Shown: in pieces, positions 9,716 through 17,842 of the stretch
How the letters are laid out: each line of letters begins with the position of its first letter
Position numbering within the stretch: the stretch's first letter is position 1
Notes under the pieces: generated by a model
Seen by the model: the letters and a program-made list of their open reading frames with translations, nothing else
Databases searched by the model: none
What the model was told of the DNA's origin: nothing
From: Candidatus Altarchaeum sp.
Lineage (GTDB): Archaea; Altiarchaeota; Altiarchaeia; Altiarchaeales; Altiarchaeaceae
Assembly (NCBI GenBank): GCA_018260615.1
Contig: JAGWDQ010000134.1
Span: forward strand, 1 to 20,739
Direction: 5' to 3'
Length of the DNA: 20,739 bases
Program-made: the position numbers and the translations under genes

Positions 9716-11719
9716 ATGCCTTCAAAAATTTTATTCAGGATAGAGGGAAAAGAGAAGGAAAATGACGAGCTTATAAAGGAGATAGTTGTTAGCGACGAAG
9801 AAATTTCTGCAAGGGAATCATTGCTGACTCTTGCCGCAAAGAACGATATAGCAATTTCAAATTTCTGCAACGGGAGAGGAAAGTGCGGAAGGTGTAAAAT
9901 AATAATAAATTTTGATGAACAGGGAAAGTTAGACATAAACAAGGAACTGCTCTCAAAGGTATTAAAGCCGGAAAAAATTTTAAAGGGCTATATTCTTGCA
10001 TGTCTGGCATTTCCGAAAAACAATACGAATATTGAGGTCATTGTTCCTTCTGAGTCCATTGAATCAAAGTATGAGGTGTTAAGCGGAAAGGCAGTAAAGA
10101 TTACAGACAGGGAAATTTCCGGCGATGCGGGAGTGGCAATAGATATCGGGACAACAACAGTGGCAACATATCTCGTGGATTTATCAAACAATGGTGTTGT
10201 TGCTTCGGAAGGAAGTTATAACGGACAGGTTAGATTCGGAGCTGATGTTATGACAAGAATGAATTATATTATTGAAAATAAAACCGGAGATGAGGCATTG
10301 CAGAACGCAATCGGAGCAACAATAAACATTCATTTAAAAAATTTATCGGAAAGGAAAAAATTTCAAAAAATTTCAAAAATCGTTGTTTCTGGAAATACCG
10401 TAATGACTTATTTATTTCTCAAAAAAAATCCGCTGGAAATCAGGGACGGTGCATACAATAATCCGAATTTTAAGAGAGCATACACTGTTAAAGGACGAGA
10501 TGTCAGGTTAAAATACGGTGCCGAAGATGCGGATGTTTATTGCGTTCCGGGACTGGGAAATTATGTCGGAGGAGATATTACATCCGATATTATAATTTCC
10601 GAAATTTTTAAAGAAGATAAAATTTGCCTTGTGATAGATGTTGGAACAAACGGAGAGGTTGCACTCGGAAACAAAGAATGGCTCGCTGTGTGTGCAACAT
10701 CCGCGGGACCTGCATTTGAAGGAGGAGAAGTCAGATGCGGAATGAGGGCGATGAAGGGTGCAATTGACCGCCTAAAGATAGAAAATCAGGGCAGAGATGT
10801 TATTTACAGAGTTATCGGAGGAGAATTTAATAAACCCGAAGGAATATGCGGAAGCGGATTGATTATTTTAATTGCAGAACTGATGAGGAACGGATTAATA
10901 GATGCGAACGGGAAATTTAACAGAAAATCAGCGGAGAAAACAGAACGGCTCAGAAAGTCAAAATATTATGAAGAACAGGGACAGGAAATTTATGAGTATG
11001 TTGTTGTTTATGGCAATGAAACAGAGGGTAAAGAGGACATAAGTTCGCTTCGCTCTCATATATCAGAAGCAAGTTCTGATATTACAATAAATGAGAAAGA
11101 CCTTGAAAATTTAAAATATACAAAAGCAGCGATATTTTCAGGAGTGATGACATTGTTAAGAAATACAGGTGTGAAATTTGATGAAATAAATAAAATTTTT
11201 ATTGCAGGCGGATTTGGAAATTTCATTGATTTGGAATCTGCCATATTGGTTGGATTGTTTCCGGATGTTGAAAGGGAAAAGTATAAATTTATAGGAAACG
11301 GTTCATTAGACGGAGCATACAGACAATTAATTGATGAGAATGCGAGAAAGACGGCCGAAAACATTGCCTCAAATGTAACTTATGTTGACTTATCCAGAGA
11401 CGGAAATTTTGTTGATGAATATAGTGCCGCTTTATACTTTCCTCACAGCAGGCTGGATTTATTTCCGACATGGAAAAATTTTGAAGGTATGAGAGGAACA
11501 AATGAGATAGAAATTTCAGATAATAAAGAAATAAAAGAGATAAAAGAAAAAGAGAAGGAAGAAACCAAAGAGATAAAAATTGCAGAAGTTAGTAAAGAAG
11601 CAAAAGAAATTAAAATTAGTGAGGATAAAGAAAGGCAGACAAAAATTTTAAAGGAATCAAAGATGTTCAGGATTGAGGGATTTAAGATAGAAGGTGATGA
11701 ACTTGAAATTGAGATGTAA
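9716..11719 (+). CDS. acsV: Reductive activator of corrinoid Fe-S protein (RACo): 2Fe-2S ferredoxin + ASKHA ATPase domains, with an extra K/E-rich C-terminal tail
   Basis: C-x5-C-x2-C (FCNGRGKCGRCKI) plus distal LAC; ASKHA motifs AIDIGTTTV, VIDVGTNGEV, SAGPAFEGG, GICGSG, IAGGFG. cdhD lies nearby. Confidence 0.9.
   Translation: MPSKILFRIEGKEKENDELIKEIVVSDEEISARESLLTLAAKNDIAISNFCNGRGKCGRCKIIINFDEQGKLDINKELLSKVLKPEKILKGYILACLAFPKNNTNIEVIVPSESIESKYEVLSGKAVKITDREISGDAGVAIDIGTTTVATYLVDLSNNGVVASEGSYNGQVRFGADVMTRMNYIIENKTGDEALQNAIGATINIHLKNLSERKKFQKISKIVVSGNTVMTYLFLKKNPLEIRDGAYNNPNFKRAYTVKGRDVRLKYGAEDADVYCVPGLGNYVGGDITSDIIISEIFKEDKICLVIDVGTNGEVALGNKEWLAVCATSAGPAFEGGEVRCGMRAMKGAIDRLKIENQGRDVIYRVIGGEFNKPEGICGSGLIILIAELMRNGLIDANGKFNRKSAEKTERLRKSKYYEEQGQEIYEYVVVYGNETEGKEDISSLRSHISEASSDITINEKDLENLKYTKAAIFSGVMTLLRNTGVKFDEINKIFIAGGFGNFIDLESAILVGLFPDVEREKYKFIGNGSLDGAYRQLIDENARKTAENIASNVTYVDLSRDGNFVDEYSAALYFPHSRLDLFPTWKNFEGMRGTNEIEISDNKEIKEIKEKEKEETKEIKIAEVSKEAKEIKISEDKERQTKILKESKMFRIEGFKIEGDELEIEM
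11039..11061. repeat. 23-bp REP-like element, copy inside the RACo coding sequence
   Basis: ataagttcgcttcgctctcatat, exact match to 16392-16414. Followed by the perfect hairpin atatcagaa-gcaag-ttctgatat at 11060-11082. Confidence 0.85.
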
Positions 11720-11742
11720 ATTTATGGGCAATTAGTAATGAA

Positions 11743-13128
11743 ATGAATACAAAAAATTTAATCGGTTTAATCAAAAAAGGAGAATCACAGACACTTGAAT
11801 TCAAAAAGAGTTTCGCCGAGACGGATGAAATTCTGGAAACGATTTGCGCGTTTGCGAATACAAACGACGGAACAACTTTGGTTGGTATTTCAGATGAAGG
11901 AAATCCTATCGGTGTAACAATTGGTAAAGATACATTGGAGAAAATTTCACAGAGAATCAGAGAGGGCTTTGATCCTGTTGTTTTTCCTTACATAGATGTT
12001 GGAGAAATTGATGGCAAAAAAATAGTTATCATAGAAGTTGCCGAGGCACAGGAGAAGCCGGTTTTATTCAGACATGTTGCATACAAGCGGGTTGGAAAAA
12101 CAAGCCCAAAGATTTCGGCAGGCGAGGTAAGAAAAATATCTAAGAACTCCGGAGAGAAGGTTTACTGGGACGAAGGAATTTGCAGGGATGCCACACTTAA
12201 AGATATTGATGAGGAAAAGGTGAGATGGTTTTTGAGAAAGGCAAAATATGAGAGAAATTTTGATGTTGATCCTAAAACACCTGTAAAAGAAGCACTTGAA
12301 CGACTGAAATTACTTAAAAGAGAAAAATTAACCAACGCGGCAATTTTATTGTTTGGAAAAAATCCGCAAAAATTCTTTTTGCAGGCGAAAATAAGATGCG
12401 CCCGGTTTAAAGGTGTGGATGGACTTGATTACATAGATATGAAAGTACTTGAAGGCACAATACCTGAAATGAGAGAAAACACCATAAAATTCATAATGCA
12501 GCACACGAAACACGGAGTTTTCTTTGATGAGAACAGGCGTTATGATAAGTGGGAGTATCCTTTCAGAGCATTGGAGGAGTTGCTGATTAATGCGTTAGCA
12601 CACAGAGAGTATGAATCAACATCGGATATACAGGTTTCTGTCTATGATGATCGTATAGAAATATGGAATCCTGGGGAATTGCCGGAATCATTAACCCCTG
12701 ATGATTTGAAGAAAAAACACAAATCAATACCAAGAAATCGTTTAATTGCCGGAACTTTGTTTTTGATCAAATACATTGAGCAGTGGGGCAAAGGAACAAA
12801 CAGGGTTATTAAAGAACTGTCAGAGCATAAGCTATCTGAACCGGCATTTCAAAATTTATCCGGCGGGTTTGAAGTTATTGTTTATGGTCCCGGAAGGGCA
12901 TTTGAAGAAGAAATTGAGAAAGAAAAATTTCATATTCTTGATATAAATAAAAGACAGAAAAATGCGATAAGATATATTAAGCAAAACGGCAATATAACTA
13001 CAAGAGAATATATGGGAATAAATAATGTCTCTGATAAGACGGCTTATATAGAATTAAATGATCTTTTCGTAAAAAAGATATTCGACAGGGTTGGCGTTGG
13101 AAGGATAACGAAATATGTTATAAAATAA
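11743..13128 (+). CDS. Schlafen/AlbA_2 domain + RecG-C-terminal-like HATPase_c_4 domain + C-terminal winged HTH (putative regulator or nuclease)
   Basis: GESQTLEFKKS and ICAFANTNDGTTLVG (AlbA_2); YPFRALEELLINALAHREY, DDRIEIWNPG, RNRLIA, IEQWGKG (HATPase_c_4); ITTREYMGINNVSDKTAYIELNDL...GVGRITKY (wHTH). Confidence 0.85.
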   Translation: MNTKNLIGLIKKGESQTLEFKKSFAETDEILETICAFANTNDGTTLVGISDEGNPIGVTIGKDTLEKISQRIREGFDPVVFPYIDVGEIDGKKIVIIEVAEAQEKPVLFRHVAYKRVGKTSPKISAGEVRKISKNSGEKVYWDEGICRDATLKDIDEEKVRWFLRKAKYERNFDVDPKTPVKEALERLKLLKREKLTNAAILLFGKNPQKFFLQAKIRCARFKGVDGLDYIDMKVLEGTIPEMRENTIKFIMQHTKHGVFFDENRRYDKWEYPFRALEELLINALAHREYESTSDIQVSVYDDRIEIWNPGELPESLTPDDLKKKHKSIPRNRLIAGTLFLIKYIEQWGKGTNRVIKELSEHKLSEPAFQNLSGGFEVIVYGPGRAFEEEIEKEKFHILDINKRQKNAIRYIKQNGNITTREYMGINNVSDKTAYIELNDLFVKKIFDRVGVGRITKYVIK

Positions 13129-13133
13129 AGGGA

Positions 13134-13214
13134 GTAGTGAAAAGGTAGTGAAAAGGTAGTGAAACAATAGGGATGAGGTAATAGTGATATGTGTTGACGC
13201 AAGGTTGACGCAAG
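13134..13214. repeat. Two short direct-repeat arrays, both with 11-bp period
   Basis: gtagtgaaaag x2 + gtagtgaaa at 13134, 13145, 13156; gttgacgcaag x2 at 13193 and 13204. Confidence 0.85.
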
Positions 13215-13329
13215 AAATAAATATCCAATTGGTGTCCGATTCAAAGAGTGTTAGAATGCTGTTGAGTTCCAAATAAAGAACAGCACCAAAATTTAATAAA
13301 TTTCAAATTAAATTTATATAATTTTAAAA

Positions 13330-13674
13330 ATGTCCGGCGAAAAGAAAAAAACAGAGGAAATTATTGACAGTAATATTGAGAGTGGTCTTGAAGAGACCCC
13401 TTATGGAATTAAGAAAAATTTAAAGGTAAATTGCTGTCTGAAATTTAAAAATTTCAAAGTTAAAGCAGGAAAAATACGGCTAAAATTTCCAGTTGAACTC
13501 GCTCAAAAAGCAGTTACTGAAAAAACAGCGGAAGGCGAAAAGGCAATATCCGAAGAAAATTTTAAAGGCGGAGAAGAGATTGAATTAAAAAATGTATGTC
13601 TGAAAGAATGCGAGCTGACAATTGATATTCCGCAGATTATCCAGGAAATAATTTCATCAAAAGGAAAAGAATAA
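13330..13674 (+). CDS. Hypothetical 114-aa protein, stand-alone paralogue of the CdhD N-terminal extension
   Basis: Residues 37-108 align without gaps to CdhD residues 32-103 with 30/72 identities (KFKNFK, FP, AQKA, EK, EKAI, KGG, P...Q.II), counted by hand. Confidence 0.8.
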   Translation: MSGEKKKTEEIIDSNIESGLEETPYGIKKNLKVNCCLKFKNFKVKAGKIRLKFPVELAQKAVTEKTAEGEKAISEENFKGGEEIELKNVCLKECELTIDIPQIIQEIISSKGKE

Positions 13675-13713
13675 AATCAACAAAGCACAAAATAAAACAA
13701 AAACATTAAATTT

Positions 13714-13750
13714 AATTGAAAGTAAAAATTTAAATTGAAAGTAAAAATTT
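13714..13750. repeat. 18-bp direct duplication spanning the TPR gene start
   Basis: aattgaaagtaaaaattt at 13714-13731 and 13733-13750. The second copy contains the TTG start at 13735. Confidence 0.75.
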
Positions 13751-16338
13751 TGCAGGGATATGGATTATTAGAGATTGCAGCAGTTGGAGTAATTTTGATT
13801 TTAAGTGTGTTAATAAGCGGGTGCGTAGAAAATGACGATACAAACAAGCACAATGATTTGGGACTTTCATACTATGAGTCAGGCAATTTTGAAGAAGCAG
13901 AGAAGGAATTTAGAGCGGCAATAAAGCTCAATCCAAATCTTGCAGTATTTCATACCAATCTAGGACAAACATTGCAAAATTTAAATCGTTATGAAGAAGC
14001 AGAGAAAGAATTTAAAGAAGCAATAAGGATATATCCAAATTATGCTGGTGCACACAATAATTTAGGATATTTATTGTATAATTTAAACAGATATGAAGAA
14101 GCGGAGAAGGAATATAGGGAAGCAATAAGAATAGATCCGAATCTTGCCATACCTCATAATAATTTAGGGCTTTTATTGCAAAATTTAAAACGCTATGAAG
14201 AAGCGGAGAAAGAACTTAGAGAAGCAATACGACTAAATTCAAATCTTGCCGTAGCACATAGTAATTTAGGACTTTTATTGAAAGATTTAAAACGCTATGA
14301 AGAAGCGGAGAAAGAACTTAGGAAAGCAATAGGGATAGATTCAAATTTTGCCGAAGCACATAATGGTTTAGGACTTTTATTGAAAGATTTAAAACGCTAT
14401 GAAGAAGCGGAGAAGGAATACATTGAAGCCATACGAATAAATCCTAATCTTGCCATACCCCATTATAATTTAGGGGTTTTATTGTATGATTTAAAACGCT
14501 ATGAAGAAGCGGAGAAAGAATACAGAGAAGCAATAAGAATTGATCCCAATGATGCTGGAACATACAATAATTTAGGGTTTTTATTGTATAATTTAAACAG
14601 ATATGAAGAAGCGGAGAAGGAACTTAGGGAAGCAATACGACTAAATCCAAATCTTGCTGAAGCACAAAGTAATTTAGAAGTTTTATTGAAATATTTAAAA
14701 CACTATGAAGAAGCGGAGAAAGAATACAGGGAAGCAATAAAGATAAATCCAGATAATGCCGATGCACATTATAATTTGGGAAATTTATTGCAGAATTTAA
14801 AACACTATGAAGAAGCAGAGAAAGAATACAGAGAAGCAATAAAGATCAATTCAAGTTTTGCTGCGGCACATAATAATTTAGGAAATTTATTGGATGATTT
14901 AAACCAATATGAAGAAGCAGAGAAAGAATACAGAGAAGCAATAAAAATAAATTCCGATTATTCCGATGCACATAATAATTTAGGACTTTTATTGTATAAT
15001 TTAAAACGCTATGAAGAAGCGGAGAAAGAATACAGAGAAGCAATAAATCTTAATTCAAGTTTTGCTGAAGCACATAATAATTTAGGACTTTTATTGTATA
15101 ATTTAAAACGCTATGAAGAAGCGGAGAAAGAATACAGAGAAGCAATAAATCTTAATTCAAGTTTTGCTGAAGCACATAATAATTTAGGACTTTTATTGTA
15201 TAATTTAAAACGCTATGAAGAAGCGGAGAAAGAATACAGAGAAGCAATAAATCTTAATTCAAGTTTTGCTGAAGCACATAATAATTTAGGACTTTTATTG
15301 TATAATTTAAAACGCTATGAAGAAGCGGAGAAAGAATACAGAGAAGCAATAAATCTTAATTCAAGTTTTGCTGAAGCACATAATAATTTAGGACTTTTAT
15401 TGTATAATTTAAAACGCTATGAAGAAGCGGAGAAGGAACTTATAGAAACAATACGACTAAATCCAAATCTCGTGGTGGCACATTATAATTTAGGAGATTT
15501 ATTAAGAGATTTAAACCGCTATGAAGAAGCGGAGAAACAATACATGGAAGCAATAAAGCTCAATTCAAGTTTTGCTGAAGCACATAATAATTTAGGGTAT
15601 TTATTGTACAATTTAAATCGCTATGAAGAAGCGGAGAAGGAATACAGAGAAGCAATACGACTAAATCCAAATTATGCTGATGCACATAATAATTTAGGAT
15701 ATTTATTGTCAGATTTAAAACGCTATGAAGAAGCGGAGAAGGAATATAGAGAAGCAATACGAATAAATCCAAATTATGCTGATGCACATAATAATTTAGG
15801 ATATTTATTGTCAGATTTAAAACGCTATGAAGAAGCGGAGAAGGAATATAGAGAAGCAATACGAATAAATCCAAATTATGCTGATGCACATAATAATTTA
15901 GGATATTTATTGTCAGATTTAAAACGCTATGAAGAAGCGGAGAAGGAATATAGAGAAGCAATACGAATAAATCCAAATTATGCTGATGCACATAATAATT
16001 TAGGATATTTATTGTCAGATTTAAAACGCTATGAAGAAGCGGAGAAGGAATATAGGGAAGTAATAAGGATAAATCCAAATTATGCTGATGCACATAATAA
16101 TTTAGGATATTTATTGTACAATTTAAACAGATATGAAGAAGCGGAGAAGGAATACAAAGAAGCAATACGAATAAATCCAAATGATGCTGAAATACATGCA
16201 AATTTAGGAATTTTATATGCAAAAATCGGGAAAATTGATGATGCAAAAGAAGAAATTTTAAAAGCAAAGGAATTGTTTGAAAAACTGGGAAGAACTGATG
16301 ATGTTAAACTTTGTGATGAATTTTTGAAAAATTTATGA
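13735..16338 (+). CDS. Lipoprotein with 24 tandem TPR repeats
   Basis: Hydrophobic signal ending in the lipobox LISG-C, then 24 x 34-aa units with consensus AxAHNNLGxLLxxLKRYEEAEKEYREAIxxNPNx. TTG start is uncertain. Confidence 0.9.
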   Translation: MKVKILQGYGLLEIAAVGVILILSVLISGCVENDDTNKHNDLGLSYYESGNFEEAEKEFRAAIKLNPNLAVFHTNLGQTLQNLNRYEEAEKEFKEAIRIYPNYAGAHNNLGYLLYNLNRYEEAEKEYREAIRIDPNLAIPHNNLGLLLQNLKRYEEAEKELREAIRLNSNLAVAHSNLGLLLKDLKRYEEAEKELRKAIGIDSNFAEAHNGLGLLLKDLKRYEEAEKEYIEAIRINPNLAIPHYNLGVLLYDLKRYEEAEKEYREAIRIDPNDAGTYNNLGFLLYNLNRYEEAEKELREAIRLNPNLAEAQSNLEVLLKYLKHYEEAEKEYREAIKINPDNADAHYNLGNLLQNLKHYEEAEKEYREAIKINSSFAAAHNNLGNLLDDLNQYEEAEKEYREAIKINSDYSDAHNNLGLLLYNLKRYEEAEKEYREAINLNSSFAEAHNNLGLLLYNLKRYEEAEKEYREAINLNSSFAEAHNNLGLLLYNLKRYEEAEKEYREAINLNSSFAEAHNNLGLLLYNLKRYEEAEKEYREAINLNSSFAEAHNNLGLLLYNLKRYEEAEKELIETIRLNPNLVVAHYNLGDLLRDLNRYEEAEKQYMEAIKLNSSFAEAHNNLGYLLYNLNRYEEAEKEYREAIRLNPNYADAHNNLGYLLSDLKRYEEAEKEYREAIRINPNYADAHNNLGYLLSDLKRYEEAEKEYREAIRINPNYADAHNNLGYLLSDLKRYEEAEKEYREAIRINPNYADAHNNLGYLLSDLKRYEEAEKEYREVIRINPNYADAHNNLGYLLYNLNRYEEAEKEYKEAIRINPNDAEIHANLGILYAKIGKIDDAKEEILKAKELFEKLGRTDDVKLCDEFLKNL
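14968..15434 (+). repeat. Identical 102-bp TPR-coding tandem block A (about 4.6 copies)
   Basis: gcacataataatttaggacttttattg recurs at 14968, 15070, 15172, 15274, 15376. Confidence 0.9.
15662..16055 (+). repeat. Identical 102-bp TPR-coding tandem block B (about 3.9 copies)
   Basis: taaatccaaattatgctgatg recurs at 15662, 15764, 15866, 15968 and, as the start of a diverged unit, at 16070. Confidence 0.9.
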
Positions 16339-16391
16339 ATATGAATAAAATAATGAACAATCATAACAAAATCCAAATAAATCAAATCCAA

Positions 16392-16414
16392 ATAAGTTCG
16401 CTTCGCTCTCATAT
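16392..16414. repeat. 23-bp REP-like element, intergenic copy 18 bp upstream of the cdhD start
   Basis: ataagttcgcttcgctctcatat, exact match to 11039-11061. Confidence 0.85.
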
Positions 16415-16432
16415 TTTTAAATAAATTTAAAA

Positions 16433-17842
16433 ATGGCTGAAAAAAATAACGATGTAGAAATTACATTATTCGGAGAAGAAGAAAATAAAAACATACTTGA
16501 AAAAATACTGAAAAGCAAGGCAAAGATAAAATTTAAAAATTTCAAGTTACTTGCCGATGATGCGGAAATTATATTTCCTTCGTTTCATGCACAAAAGGCA
16601 TTACTTGAAAAATCAACAGGTAAAGAAAAGGCAATTCTTGAACGGCTGATGAAAGGCGGTGGGGCAATAACGATTGAGGACTTTGAAGCAAGCGGCGAAG
16701 AATTTGAAATAACCCTTCCTTCGTTTGTTCAGCAGATTATAACCGCAGGATTTGGCGGAGGAAGAGGAATGCAGGGTGCAGAGTCAGTAAGGGCAATTGA
16801 AAGATTACTTGAATTTAAATTTGATATTTCAAAAATTACTGAAAAATATCCGATGCAGATATCGGAGGTAACATTGGGAGCAACGAGAACAGAAGGAGGA
16901 AGCCGGGATACGAGTGTAAAAATTGGCGGACAAAAGACAATGCCGTTTTATTTCTTTGAAAGTTCTTCAGGCAATAAGCCGGTTATTTCCAATGATGTAT
17001 TTGACATACCTGAGGGAGTTCCAAGAGTTGTGAAAGAGTGTTTTAAAATAGGTGATAAGACAGATAAAGAAATAATGGCAGATGCCGGAGAATGGGCAAA
17101 ATTCAGAGTTGAAAAATCCAATGCAAAGGTAGTGACTATTCATTTAATCAGCACAGATCCGAATGTTAAAGATGCAAGTGTTCAGGATGCGATGAAAACA
17201 GTTGCCCATATATTGCAGTCGGTTAAAGTTCCTATTGTTGTCGGCGGTTCGGGAAATCCTGTAAAAGACCCTTTAATATTTAAAGAAGCGGCAGAGATGT
17301 TTGCCGGAGAACGACTATTATTTTCAACAATTGCCGGTGATATGGAATATGAAGATGTTGTTAAAGCATGTACCAGATACGGTCACAACCTTGGAACGCT
17401 TGTTTCAATGAATCCTGATGATATGAGGCGTCTGAACGGCGGCATATTAAAGGCGGGACTGCCAAGAAACCAGTTAACAATGGATCCGTTTACAGCAGGA
17501 GTTGGTTACGGAATAGAATATTCAATTTCTTCACTGGAAAGATGTCGTCTGGCTGGATTATTGGGCGAGGAATCGCTCGCGGTTCCGATAATATCTGCAA
17601 CTTCAAATGTATGGGCGGCGAGAGAGGCGTGGAAGAAAAATGATGAATGGGGACCAAGAGAACTAAGAGGTCCATTATATGAGTCAGCAACCGGACTTGT
17701 AGCGTTGTTGTGCGGAGCGGACATATTTTATTCATTAGATGTGCTTGCTATTGAATTGTTAAACAAAATCATTGATTCCACTCACGAATTAAAAGAAGAA
17801 ATGGATAAGAAAAGTAACTATCTTTCATGGATTACTGCGTAA
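16433..17842 (+). CDS. cdhD: Acetyl-CoA decarbonylase/synthase delta subunit (small subunit of corrinoid Fe-S protein) with an N-terminal extension of about 110 aa
   Basis: LGATRTEGGSR..VKIGGQKTMPFY, VTIHLISTDP, PIVVGGSGNPVKDP, MDPFTAGVGYGIEYS, ERCRLAGL.G and final WI are CdhD/AcsD signatures. Confidence 0.95.
   Translation: MAEKNNDVEITLFGEEENKNILEKILKSKAKIKFKNFKLLADDAEIIFPSFHAQKALLEKSTGKEKAILERLMKGGGAITIEDFEASGEEFEITLPSFVQQIITAGFGGGRGMQGAESVRAIERLLEFKFDISKITEKYPMQISEVTLGATRTEGGSRDTSVKIGGQKTMPFYFFESSSGNKPVISNDVFDIPEGVPRVVKECFKIGDKTDKEIMADAGEWAKFRVEKSNAKVVTIHLISTDPNVKDASVQDAMKTVAHILQSVKVPIVVGGSGNPVKDPLIFKEAAEMFAGERLLFSTIAGDMEYEDVVKACTRYGHNLGTLVSMNPDDMRRLNGGILKAGLPRNQLTMDPFTAGVGYGIEYSISSLERCRLAGLLGEESLAVPIISATSNVWAAREAWKKNDEWGPRELRGPLYESATGLVALLCGADIFYSLDVLAIELLNKIIDSTHELKEEMDKKSNYLSWITA

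Follow-up and report, generated by a model that had tools for sequence, protein, structure and literature searches.

Why should three genes that lie close together in an archaeal genome, encoding the reductive activator of corrinoid protein (RACo), a small orphan protein and the CdhD subunit of the acetyl-CoA decarbonylase/synthase complex (ACDS), all carry a short segment with the same alternation of hydrophobic residues? The locus lies in Candidatus Altarchaeum sp. (genus Altiarchaeum below) on contig JAGWDQ010000134.1, whose positions 1 to 20,739 make up the 20,739-nucleotide stretch that was analysed, here called the window. All three genes are on the forward strand: RACo (9716..11719, 667 aa; Pfam Fer2, Raco_middle and RACo_C_ter), a free-standing protein of 114 aa (13330..13674) and cdhD, for the small subunit of the corrinoid iron-sulfur protein (CoFeSP; 16433..17842, 469 aa; PF03599 from aa 145, E 2.5e-45). 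The original prediction saw one 17-residue pattern linking them and proposed that it marks a docking or scaffold system of ACDS. On the sequence comparisons given here, the correct description is that of an N-terminal CdhD element of about 31 aa, a short helix followed by a hairpin-like segment, which has been copied within CdhD, as a free gene and onto the C-terminus of RACo.

The five 17-mers are all found at the places claimed for them. One forms the extreme C-terminus of RACo (aa 651-667, 11666-11716), two lie in the 114-aa protein (copy 1, aa 37-53, 13438-13488; copy 2, aa 84-100, 13579-13629) and two in CdhD (copy 1, aa 32-48, 16526-16576; copy 2, aa 79-95, 16667-16717). They also differ in charge as had been noticed, the net values being -4 for RACo, 0 and -6 for CdhD copies 1 and 2, and +7 and -2 for the two copies of the 114-aa protein. 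The generic pattern h-x-h-x-x-h-x-h-x4-h-x-h-x-h (h, hydrophobic or Ala) is, however, matched 2.3-5.3 times per 1000 aa in this AT-rich proteome; in the 1262 residues of RACo, the 114-aa protein and CdhD together, about 3-7 matches are expected and five are seen. At this chance frequency, the pattern alone is no evidence. Moreover, the 114-aa protein is paralogous over its whole length to CdhD aa 1-110, so that four of the five copies cannot count as independent; by alignment these four represent a single module. Thus, the copies are real, but the idea of one motif joining three proteins does not survive in its original form, and the non-chance signal is that of profile tests trained on independent sequences.

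The 114-aa protein, for which a Pfam search returned no match, aligns with CdhD at 39% identity over 92 aa (BLASTP, E 5e-14), and the alignment runs over its full length, from the first residues up to the Gly-rich linker of CdhD. That linker begins at 16748, after an N-terminal extension of about 105 aa (aa 1-105, 16433..16747) that stands ahead of the TIM barrel in the window CdhD and is absent from a Dehalococcoidia locus. According to hhalign and the matrix ranks below, the extension comprises two hairpin-plus-helix units and is an internal duplication (hhalign of one unit with the other, 84%, E 7e-6), the duplicated unit of about 30 aa consisting of a hairpin-like segment, a Pro and a short helix. 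Compared with the canonical CdhD element, unit 2 gives 95.5% in hhalign (E 1.5e-8) and copy 1 gives 70.6%.

In RACo, the 17-mer sits at the end of a K/E-rich linker, as the original prediction had it: the linker (aa 590-636, 11483..11623; delimited by length and composition in nine orthologues) directly precedes a conserved terminal element of 31 aa (11624..11716), of which the 17-mer is the hairpin-like part. Nine Altiarchaeum RACo proteins are 70-97% identical overall. Their linkers are 39-90 aa long, contain 46-63% K+E, vary in sequence and are not mutually alignable, and the last 25 residues have a mean pairwise identity of 72% (8 distinct tails). The last 31 aa match the CdhD N-terminal element end to end and without gaps, preceding helix included. 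Against 40 CdhD N-termini this match reaches 88% in hhalign (E 3e-6, score 23.9), as compared with scores of 5.2-11.3 for 30 column-shuffled profile controls; over the tests, the tail gave 84-88% with E from 3e-6 to 7e-6, and it shares 42% identity with the N-terminus of the CdhD encoded by a related Altiarchaeales genome.

Since HMMER handles short, biased profiles poorly, we used transparent ungapped matrices with shuffled-proteome controls. A 17-column matrix trained solely on 40 CdhD elements from other archaea was scanned over 717,395 positions in the genome's open reading frames of at least 100 aa. The RACo C-terminal 17-mer ranks first among all of these positions, followed at ranks 6, 7 and 38 by CdhD copy 2, copy 2 of the 114-aa protein and CdhD copy 1. 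Five shuffled proteomes gave 0-1 hits each at the score of the RACo tail, which two of the five reached. By the profile and matrix matches, the RACo tail is therefore copied from, or very closely imitates, the CdhD element and not the CdhC tail. The next-best matches of the CdhD matrix in the genome are PQQ-propeller Ser/Thr kinases, which we rejected as unrelated to ACDS. These PQQ-beta-propeller or stand-alone Ser/Thr kinases (C121:3576-7340, C121:18156-20990 and C59:6849-8225; loci L103-L105) share a repeated motif of the L-N-x-E-G-F-E-S-D type before the kinase domain, and this is the source of their matches.

A short acidic tail might nevertheless have come to resemble CdhD by convergence. 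It would then be unrelated to ACDS and would serve RACo itself, in dimerisation, autoinhibition or the binding of another partner, its likeness to CdhD being that of any short acidic amphipathic strand. This would fit with the shortness of the match, with HMMER E-values that are not significant, with the two shuffled proteomes of five that reach the same matrix score, and with our failure to find the tail in RACo outside one genus. We consider convergence highly improbable all the same, as the 31 ungapped columns include the preceding helix and score far above every shuffled control, the match ends exactly at the C-terminus of RACo, the gene belongs to the same cluster as the other copies, the likeness extends to the CdhD of a related genome, and tail and 114-aa gene co-occur in the same lineage. 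A further argument comes from an AlphaFold2 (AF2) model of full RACo built with 42 sequences. Its core is well modelled, with a mean predicted local distance difference test (pLDDT) score of 82.8 and mostly above 85, the linker region shows low-confidence helices at 584-615 and 627-647, and the tail is unstructured and is not docked back onto RACo in the monomer. The lack of intramolecular docking speaks against a role within RACo; as far as such a model can tell, the unstructured tail neither supports nor refutes docking elsewhere. The same model places below pLDDT 50 a short in-frame insert at RACo aa 440-452 (about 11033-11071), which the closest orthologue, P0002, does not have.

If the tail is a CdhD element, what does this element do in CdhD? 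The comparison took in 120 CdhC homologues and 80 named cdh loci of archaea. At the N-terminus of archaeal CdhD, a short helix of the L-L-x-L-L-x-K type leads into an acidic segment, ELELEDFEMEVGDLEIWL in type and slightly shorter in the Methanosarcinales. Of 61 full-length CdhD proteins from archaea, nearly all have the hairpin-like element, 45 by a strict pattern and the Methanosarcinales variants by eye. The similar C-terminal segment that the original prediction mentioned for archaeal CdhC proved to be there: 97 of 113 CdhC homologues outside the genus, and CdhC in most of the 80 archaeal loci, have a basic motif of the type FKIILKNAKIHAEKVIIKK at their C-terminus. A related segment, type FSIEDLENVQITIG, stands at the CdhA N-terminus. 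The elements of CdhD, CdhC and CdhA share the core h-x-h-[KE]-[NDG]-h-x-h in one register and without gaps. In charge, those of CdhD (-2 to -9, mean -5.5) and the tails of CdhC (+3 to +8, mean +4.5) have disjoint ranges. None of the three terminal elements occurs in the Dehalococcoidia locus (L101), the single bacterial locus in the set, and when all open reading frames of the 80 cdh loci were scanned, no other protein family showed a CdhD or CdhC element. The proposed docking or scaffold role is thereby recast rather than dismissed: what we find is not a single scattered motif but one that marks terminal extensions of ACDS subunits, together with a conserved, CdhD-like RACo tail.

The canonical acidic range takes in the RACo tail, CdhD copy 2 and copy 2 of the 114-aa protein; CdhD copy 1 and copy 1 of the 114-aa protein fall outside it. 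Across orthologues, copy 1 carries +4 to +7 in the 114-aa protein, by our own count of the sequences, as against 0 to +1 in CdhD. A derivation of the first copies from the CdhC tail was not supported, their ranks of 103 and 139 with the CdhC matrix being at the level of shuffled proteomes. With the same matrix the genome's own CdhC tail, of net charge +1, ranks first.

Some CdhC proteins end differently. In four Altiarchaeales loci (L023, L024, L027 and L031), two Methanotrichaceae loci (L094 and L097) and P0133-P0146, a winged-helix-like C-terminal domain of about 45 aa replaces the basic tail; it is an alternative C-terminal module for the acetyl-CoA synthase (ACS) subunit. In these lineages CdhD, and CdhA where readable, retain their N-terminal elements. 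The CdhA encoded in the same genome as the window (C111:23892-26519, L106; 876 aa) has a helix-turn-helix-like insert in its ferredoxin module.

On these grounds the reading that we favour, with a probability of roughly 55%, is that ACDS possesses terminal docking elements, and that the spread of the CdhD element in Altiarchaeum into CdhD, the 114-aa gene and the RACo tail serves to tether RACo to the complex. Archaeal ACDS subunits would carry short docking elements at the acidic start of CdhD, the basic end of CdhC and the related start of CdhA, and the CdhD element would have been copied three times in this genus. The RACo tail could then occupy a site on the ACDS core normally taken by a CdhD element, or sit beside one, which would keep the ATP-dependent activator next to the corrinoid protein that needs re-reduction. 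The 114-aa protein, for its part, would assemble together with the CdhD scaffold and offer additional sites for docking. Its strongly basic copy 1 (+7) may pair with the acidic RACo tail (-4), and is a candidate partner because it is basic in all orthologues whereas copy 1 of CdhD is neutral. The alternation of hydrophobic residues points to amphipathic strands, and the opposite charges to pairing between unlike elements. The elements probably fold on pairing only, as an intermolecular beta-sheet stabilised by charge complementarity. As a free-standing scaffold copy is encoded beside the tagged RACo, the tag probably serves to dock components to the complex. From the sequences, docking of RACo to ACDS appears to be the best reading, well motivated and statistically grounded.

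That a flexibly linked, short terminal element can recruit an enzyme to a scaffold is familiar from dockerin-cohesin pairs, the docking domains of polyketide synthases and nonribosomal peptide synthetases, and beta-strand augmentation. In all these cases the likeness is one of analogy, with no sequence or fold relationship, the Altiarchaeum elements being about 17-31 aa. The activator itself is of the usual kind: its domain set is complete, with an N-terminal 2Fe-2S ferredoxin, a RACo middle and a C-terminal ASKHA domain (PF00111, E 1.5e-5; PF17651, E 2.8e-42; PF14574, E 4.6e-88), as in RACo of Carboxydothermus hydrogenoformans, and by analogy it presumably performs the same ATP-dependent re-reduction of Co(II). 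The difference is at the end, where bacterial and other archaeal RACo proteins stop shortly after the ASKHA domain, while linker and tail occur in the Altiarchaeum proteins only. The RACo-CoFeSP complex of C. hydrogenoformans, described by Hennig et al., is said to be formed through folded domains and not through a tag.

That terminal extensions scaffold ACDS is already known. In Methanosarcina acetivorans, the CdhD N-terminal region has been shown experimentally to be the oligomerisation scaffold of ACDS: CoFeSP oligomerises via CdhD residues 45-68, a coiled-coil helix described as a leucine zipper forming a hexa- to octameric coiled coil (Zimmer et al. 2026 preprint, PMC13370988). The same work proposed that the "disordered" termini of CdhA (1-43) and CdhC (401-470) bind this CdhD region as tethers, states itself that these termini come without biochemical data, and calls for "additional uncharacterized structural elements" in the complex. 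The sole crosslink between termini joins CdhA E15 to CdhC K452 (PMC13370988). By approximate mapping, both residues fall within or next to the terminal motifs: E15, on the numbering of a Methanosarcina sequence, in the CdhA segment, and residue 452 of a CdhC of 470 aa in the basic motif, 18 residues before the C-terminus. The main text of PMC13370988 does not contain the words motif, strand, beta-sheet or hairpin, and mentions RACo only in a structural comparison. Its scaffold and ours involve the same termini, the N-terminus of CdhD, the C-terminus of CdhC and the N-terminus of CdhA, but the part tested there is the coiled-coil helix only, and the helix-plus-hairpin segment lies before that helix and is more widespread. 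Indeed, the Methanosarcina-type coiled-coil motif was found in 11 of the 61 archaeal CdhD proteins and not in the window CdhD, where the helix between the two copies has a weak G-x-E-x-A-I-L likeness to the Methanosarcina helix. Two further differences are that the CdhD element has a charge-opposed counterpart in CdhC, and that Altiarchaeum extends it to RACo and a free-standing protein. In methanogen ACS (CdhC), a C-terminal extension of about 75 aa was not resolved by cryo-electron microscopy and was described as "of unknown function" (PMC11474084); the basic hairpin-like motif is at the end of that extension, for which the paper discusses no motif or partner. In the literature searched, we did not find the charge-opposed elements, the tagged RACo or the free-standing paralogue described.

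Disorder of the termini could be taken at face value. The elements would then be flexible charged tails without specific pairing, acidic in CdhD and RACo and basic in CdhC and copy 1 of the 114-aa protein, the complex would be held together by fuzzy multivalent electrostatics, and the RACo tail would simply add RACo to the cloud. Consistent with this, every element has a pLDDT below 50 in the AF2 monomer models, the termini were called disordered in PMC13370988, and the charge classes are opposite and disjoint. The conserved positions, on the other hand, are hydrophobic and keep a strict i, i+2 register, a fixed [KE]-[NDG] kink and a fixed length over many phyla, and charged tails alone would not be expected to preserve such a register. 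In RACo, moreover, the K/E linker varies and the adjoining tail does not. Purely electrostatic tails therefore seem to us quite unlikely.

The distribution of the copies is narrow. All four Altiarchaeum genomes have the 114-aa gene and the order RACo-114aa-cdhD. In three of them the RACo tail can be read; in the fourth the linker is interrupted by an assembly gap (a run of N; locus L009 of genome G001, about 2378-2632), and the tail cannot be followed in frame. The K/E-coding linker, being repetitive, apparently resists assembly. With the queries used, 37 other Altiarchaeia genomes yielded neither the tail nor the 114-aa gene, and no such tail was seen on the RACo proteins of other Altiarchaeales or on those encoded by 13 genes that adjoin cdh operons in other archaea. 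The RACo tail is therefore conserved in relatives, as had been asked of it, only in so far as the nine Altiarchaeum orthologues keep it, and restriction to one genus means that tail and 114-aa gene are no general archaeal feature. A profile of the two-unit module, searched against 1.84 billion representative proteins, recovered two real clusters, the 114-aa family and a 103-aa variant in which both copies, but not the middle region, are kept. We rejected a match to a bacterial secreted repeat protein (P0244, 380 aa, E 8e-5) as probably due to chance or convergence; this protein has five copies of a unit containing F-K-N-F-D-K-H-R-E-K-I-H-L. The search also returned P0243, of 1856 aa, with 11 matched stretches.

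The 114-aa protein might, instead of being an adaptor, regulate assembly: a scaffold region with no enzyme attached, it would cap or dilute CdhD oligomers and in this way restrict the size or stoichiometry of the complex, with the RACo tail binding the elements of CdhD, CdhC or CdhA directly. In favour of a regulator, the protein contains the entire CdhD extension and breaks off right at the Gly-rich linker, its gene is in every case found a short way upstream of cdhD and, in P0242, both copies are kept while the middle region has diverged. None of this separates a regulator from an adaptor, however, and copy 1 is consistently far more basic in the 114-aa protein than in CdhD, a sign of a changed partner more than of plain mimicry. 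We therefore judge the regulator to be unlikely, and retain the adaptor that helps tether RACo.

Several observations weigh against the tethering of RACo through docking elements. The elements are short and compositionally biased, and profile searches with hidden Markov models (HMMs) in HMMER give little: with a 22-column HMM of the CdhD element, copy 2 of the 114-aa protein came third and the RACo tail fourth, at E values of 14-17, and CdhD copy 2 scored badly; a 19-column HMM of the CdhC tail found the genome's own CdhC only (E 0.7) and missed every copy in the window. Nor do the first copies match the CdhC type significantly. With pLDDT values this low (36 for the 114-aa protein in AF2, with 8 sequences, and 0.40 in the ESM Atlas, which offered no usable neighbours), the hairpin fold is inferred solely from the alternating hydrophobic pattern, and the charge pairing of the RACo tail with copy 1 of the 114-aa protein is an idea, not a result. 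Within the genus, the canonical partners of the elements may have changed: the CdhC tail carries just +1, and the CdhA N-terminus looks degenerate, without the hydrophobic pattern of the second strand seen in related Altiarchaeales, so that the network of ACDS elements seems rewired. Finally, all CdhC-CdhD crosslinks in PMC13370988 fall within folded domains and none connects the CdhC tail to the CdhD N-terminus, which is mild evidence against a pair of CdhC tail and CdhD hairpin, and the CdhD construct that oligomerises there (residues 43-88) does not contain the hairpin.

In most other archaea the ACDS genes form one operon, unlike here, where they are scattered: cdhC stands alone on contig C70, cdhE-(cdhB?)-cdhA is on C111, and RACo-114aa-cdhD is on C134. 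The window CdhD has its TIM-barrel domain (PF03599), and its partner subunits are encoded in the same genome. RACo and the 114-aa gene are separated by a gene with AlbA_2 (Schlafen-like) and HATPase_c_4 domains (11743-13128, forward strand), which is probably an insertion because the two are adjacent in three relatives from the genus. Between the 114-aa gene and cdhD, a TPR protein of 867 aa (13735-16338, forward strand) has a lipoprotein-like N-terminus and runs of near-identical 34-aa repeats. The proteins at the same position in the genus relatives L011 and L015 have 158 aa and about 93 aa, and the difference in size looks like a recent repeat expansion.

The question of how five subunits cohere in a 2-MDa ACDS particle becomes testable once charge-opposed elements can be named at the termini of CdhD, CdhC and CdhA. 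In the broadest, and tentative, form of the idea, which we think possible though rather doubtful, these would constitute a hairpin code, in which acidic CdhD, basic CdhC and related CdhA elements zip into intermolecular beta-sheets that lie in the core of the complex and hold it together, and to which the adaptor and the tagged RACo of Altiarchaeum bring in cofactor repair. Altiarchaeum would provide a natural experiment in this respect, with the CdhD element transplanted onto RACo and released as a free protein, which argues that it is a portable docking module. The tagged RACo suggests that cofactor repair may be built into the ACDS complex.

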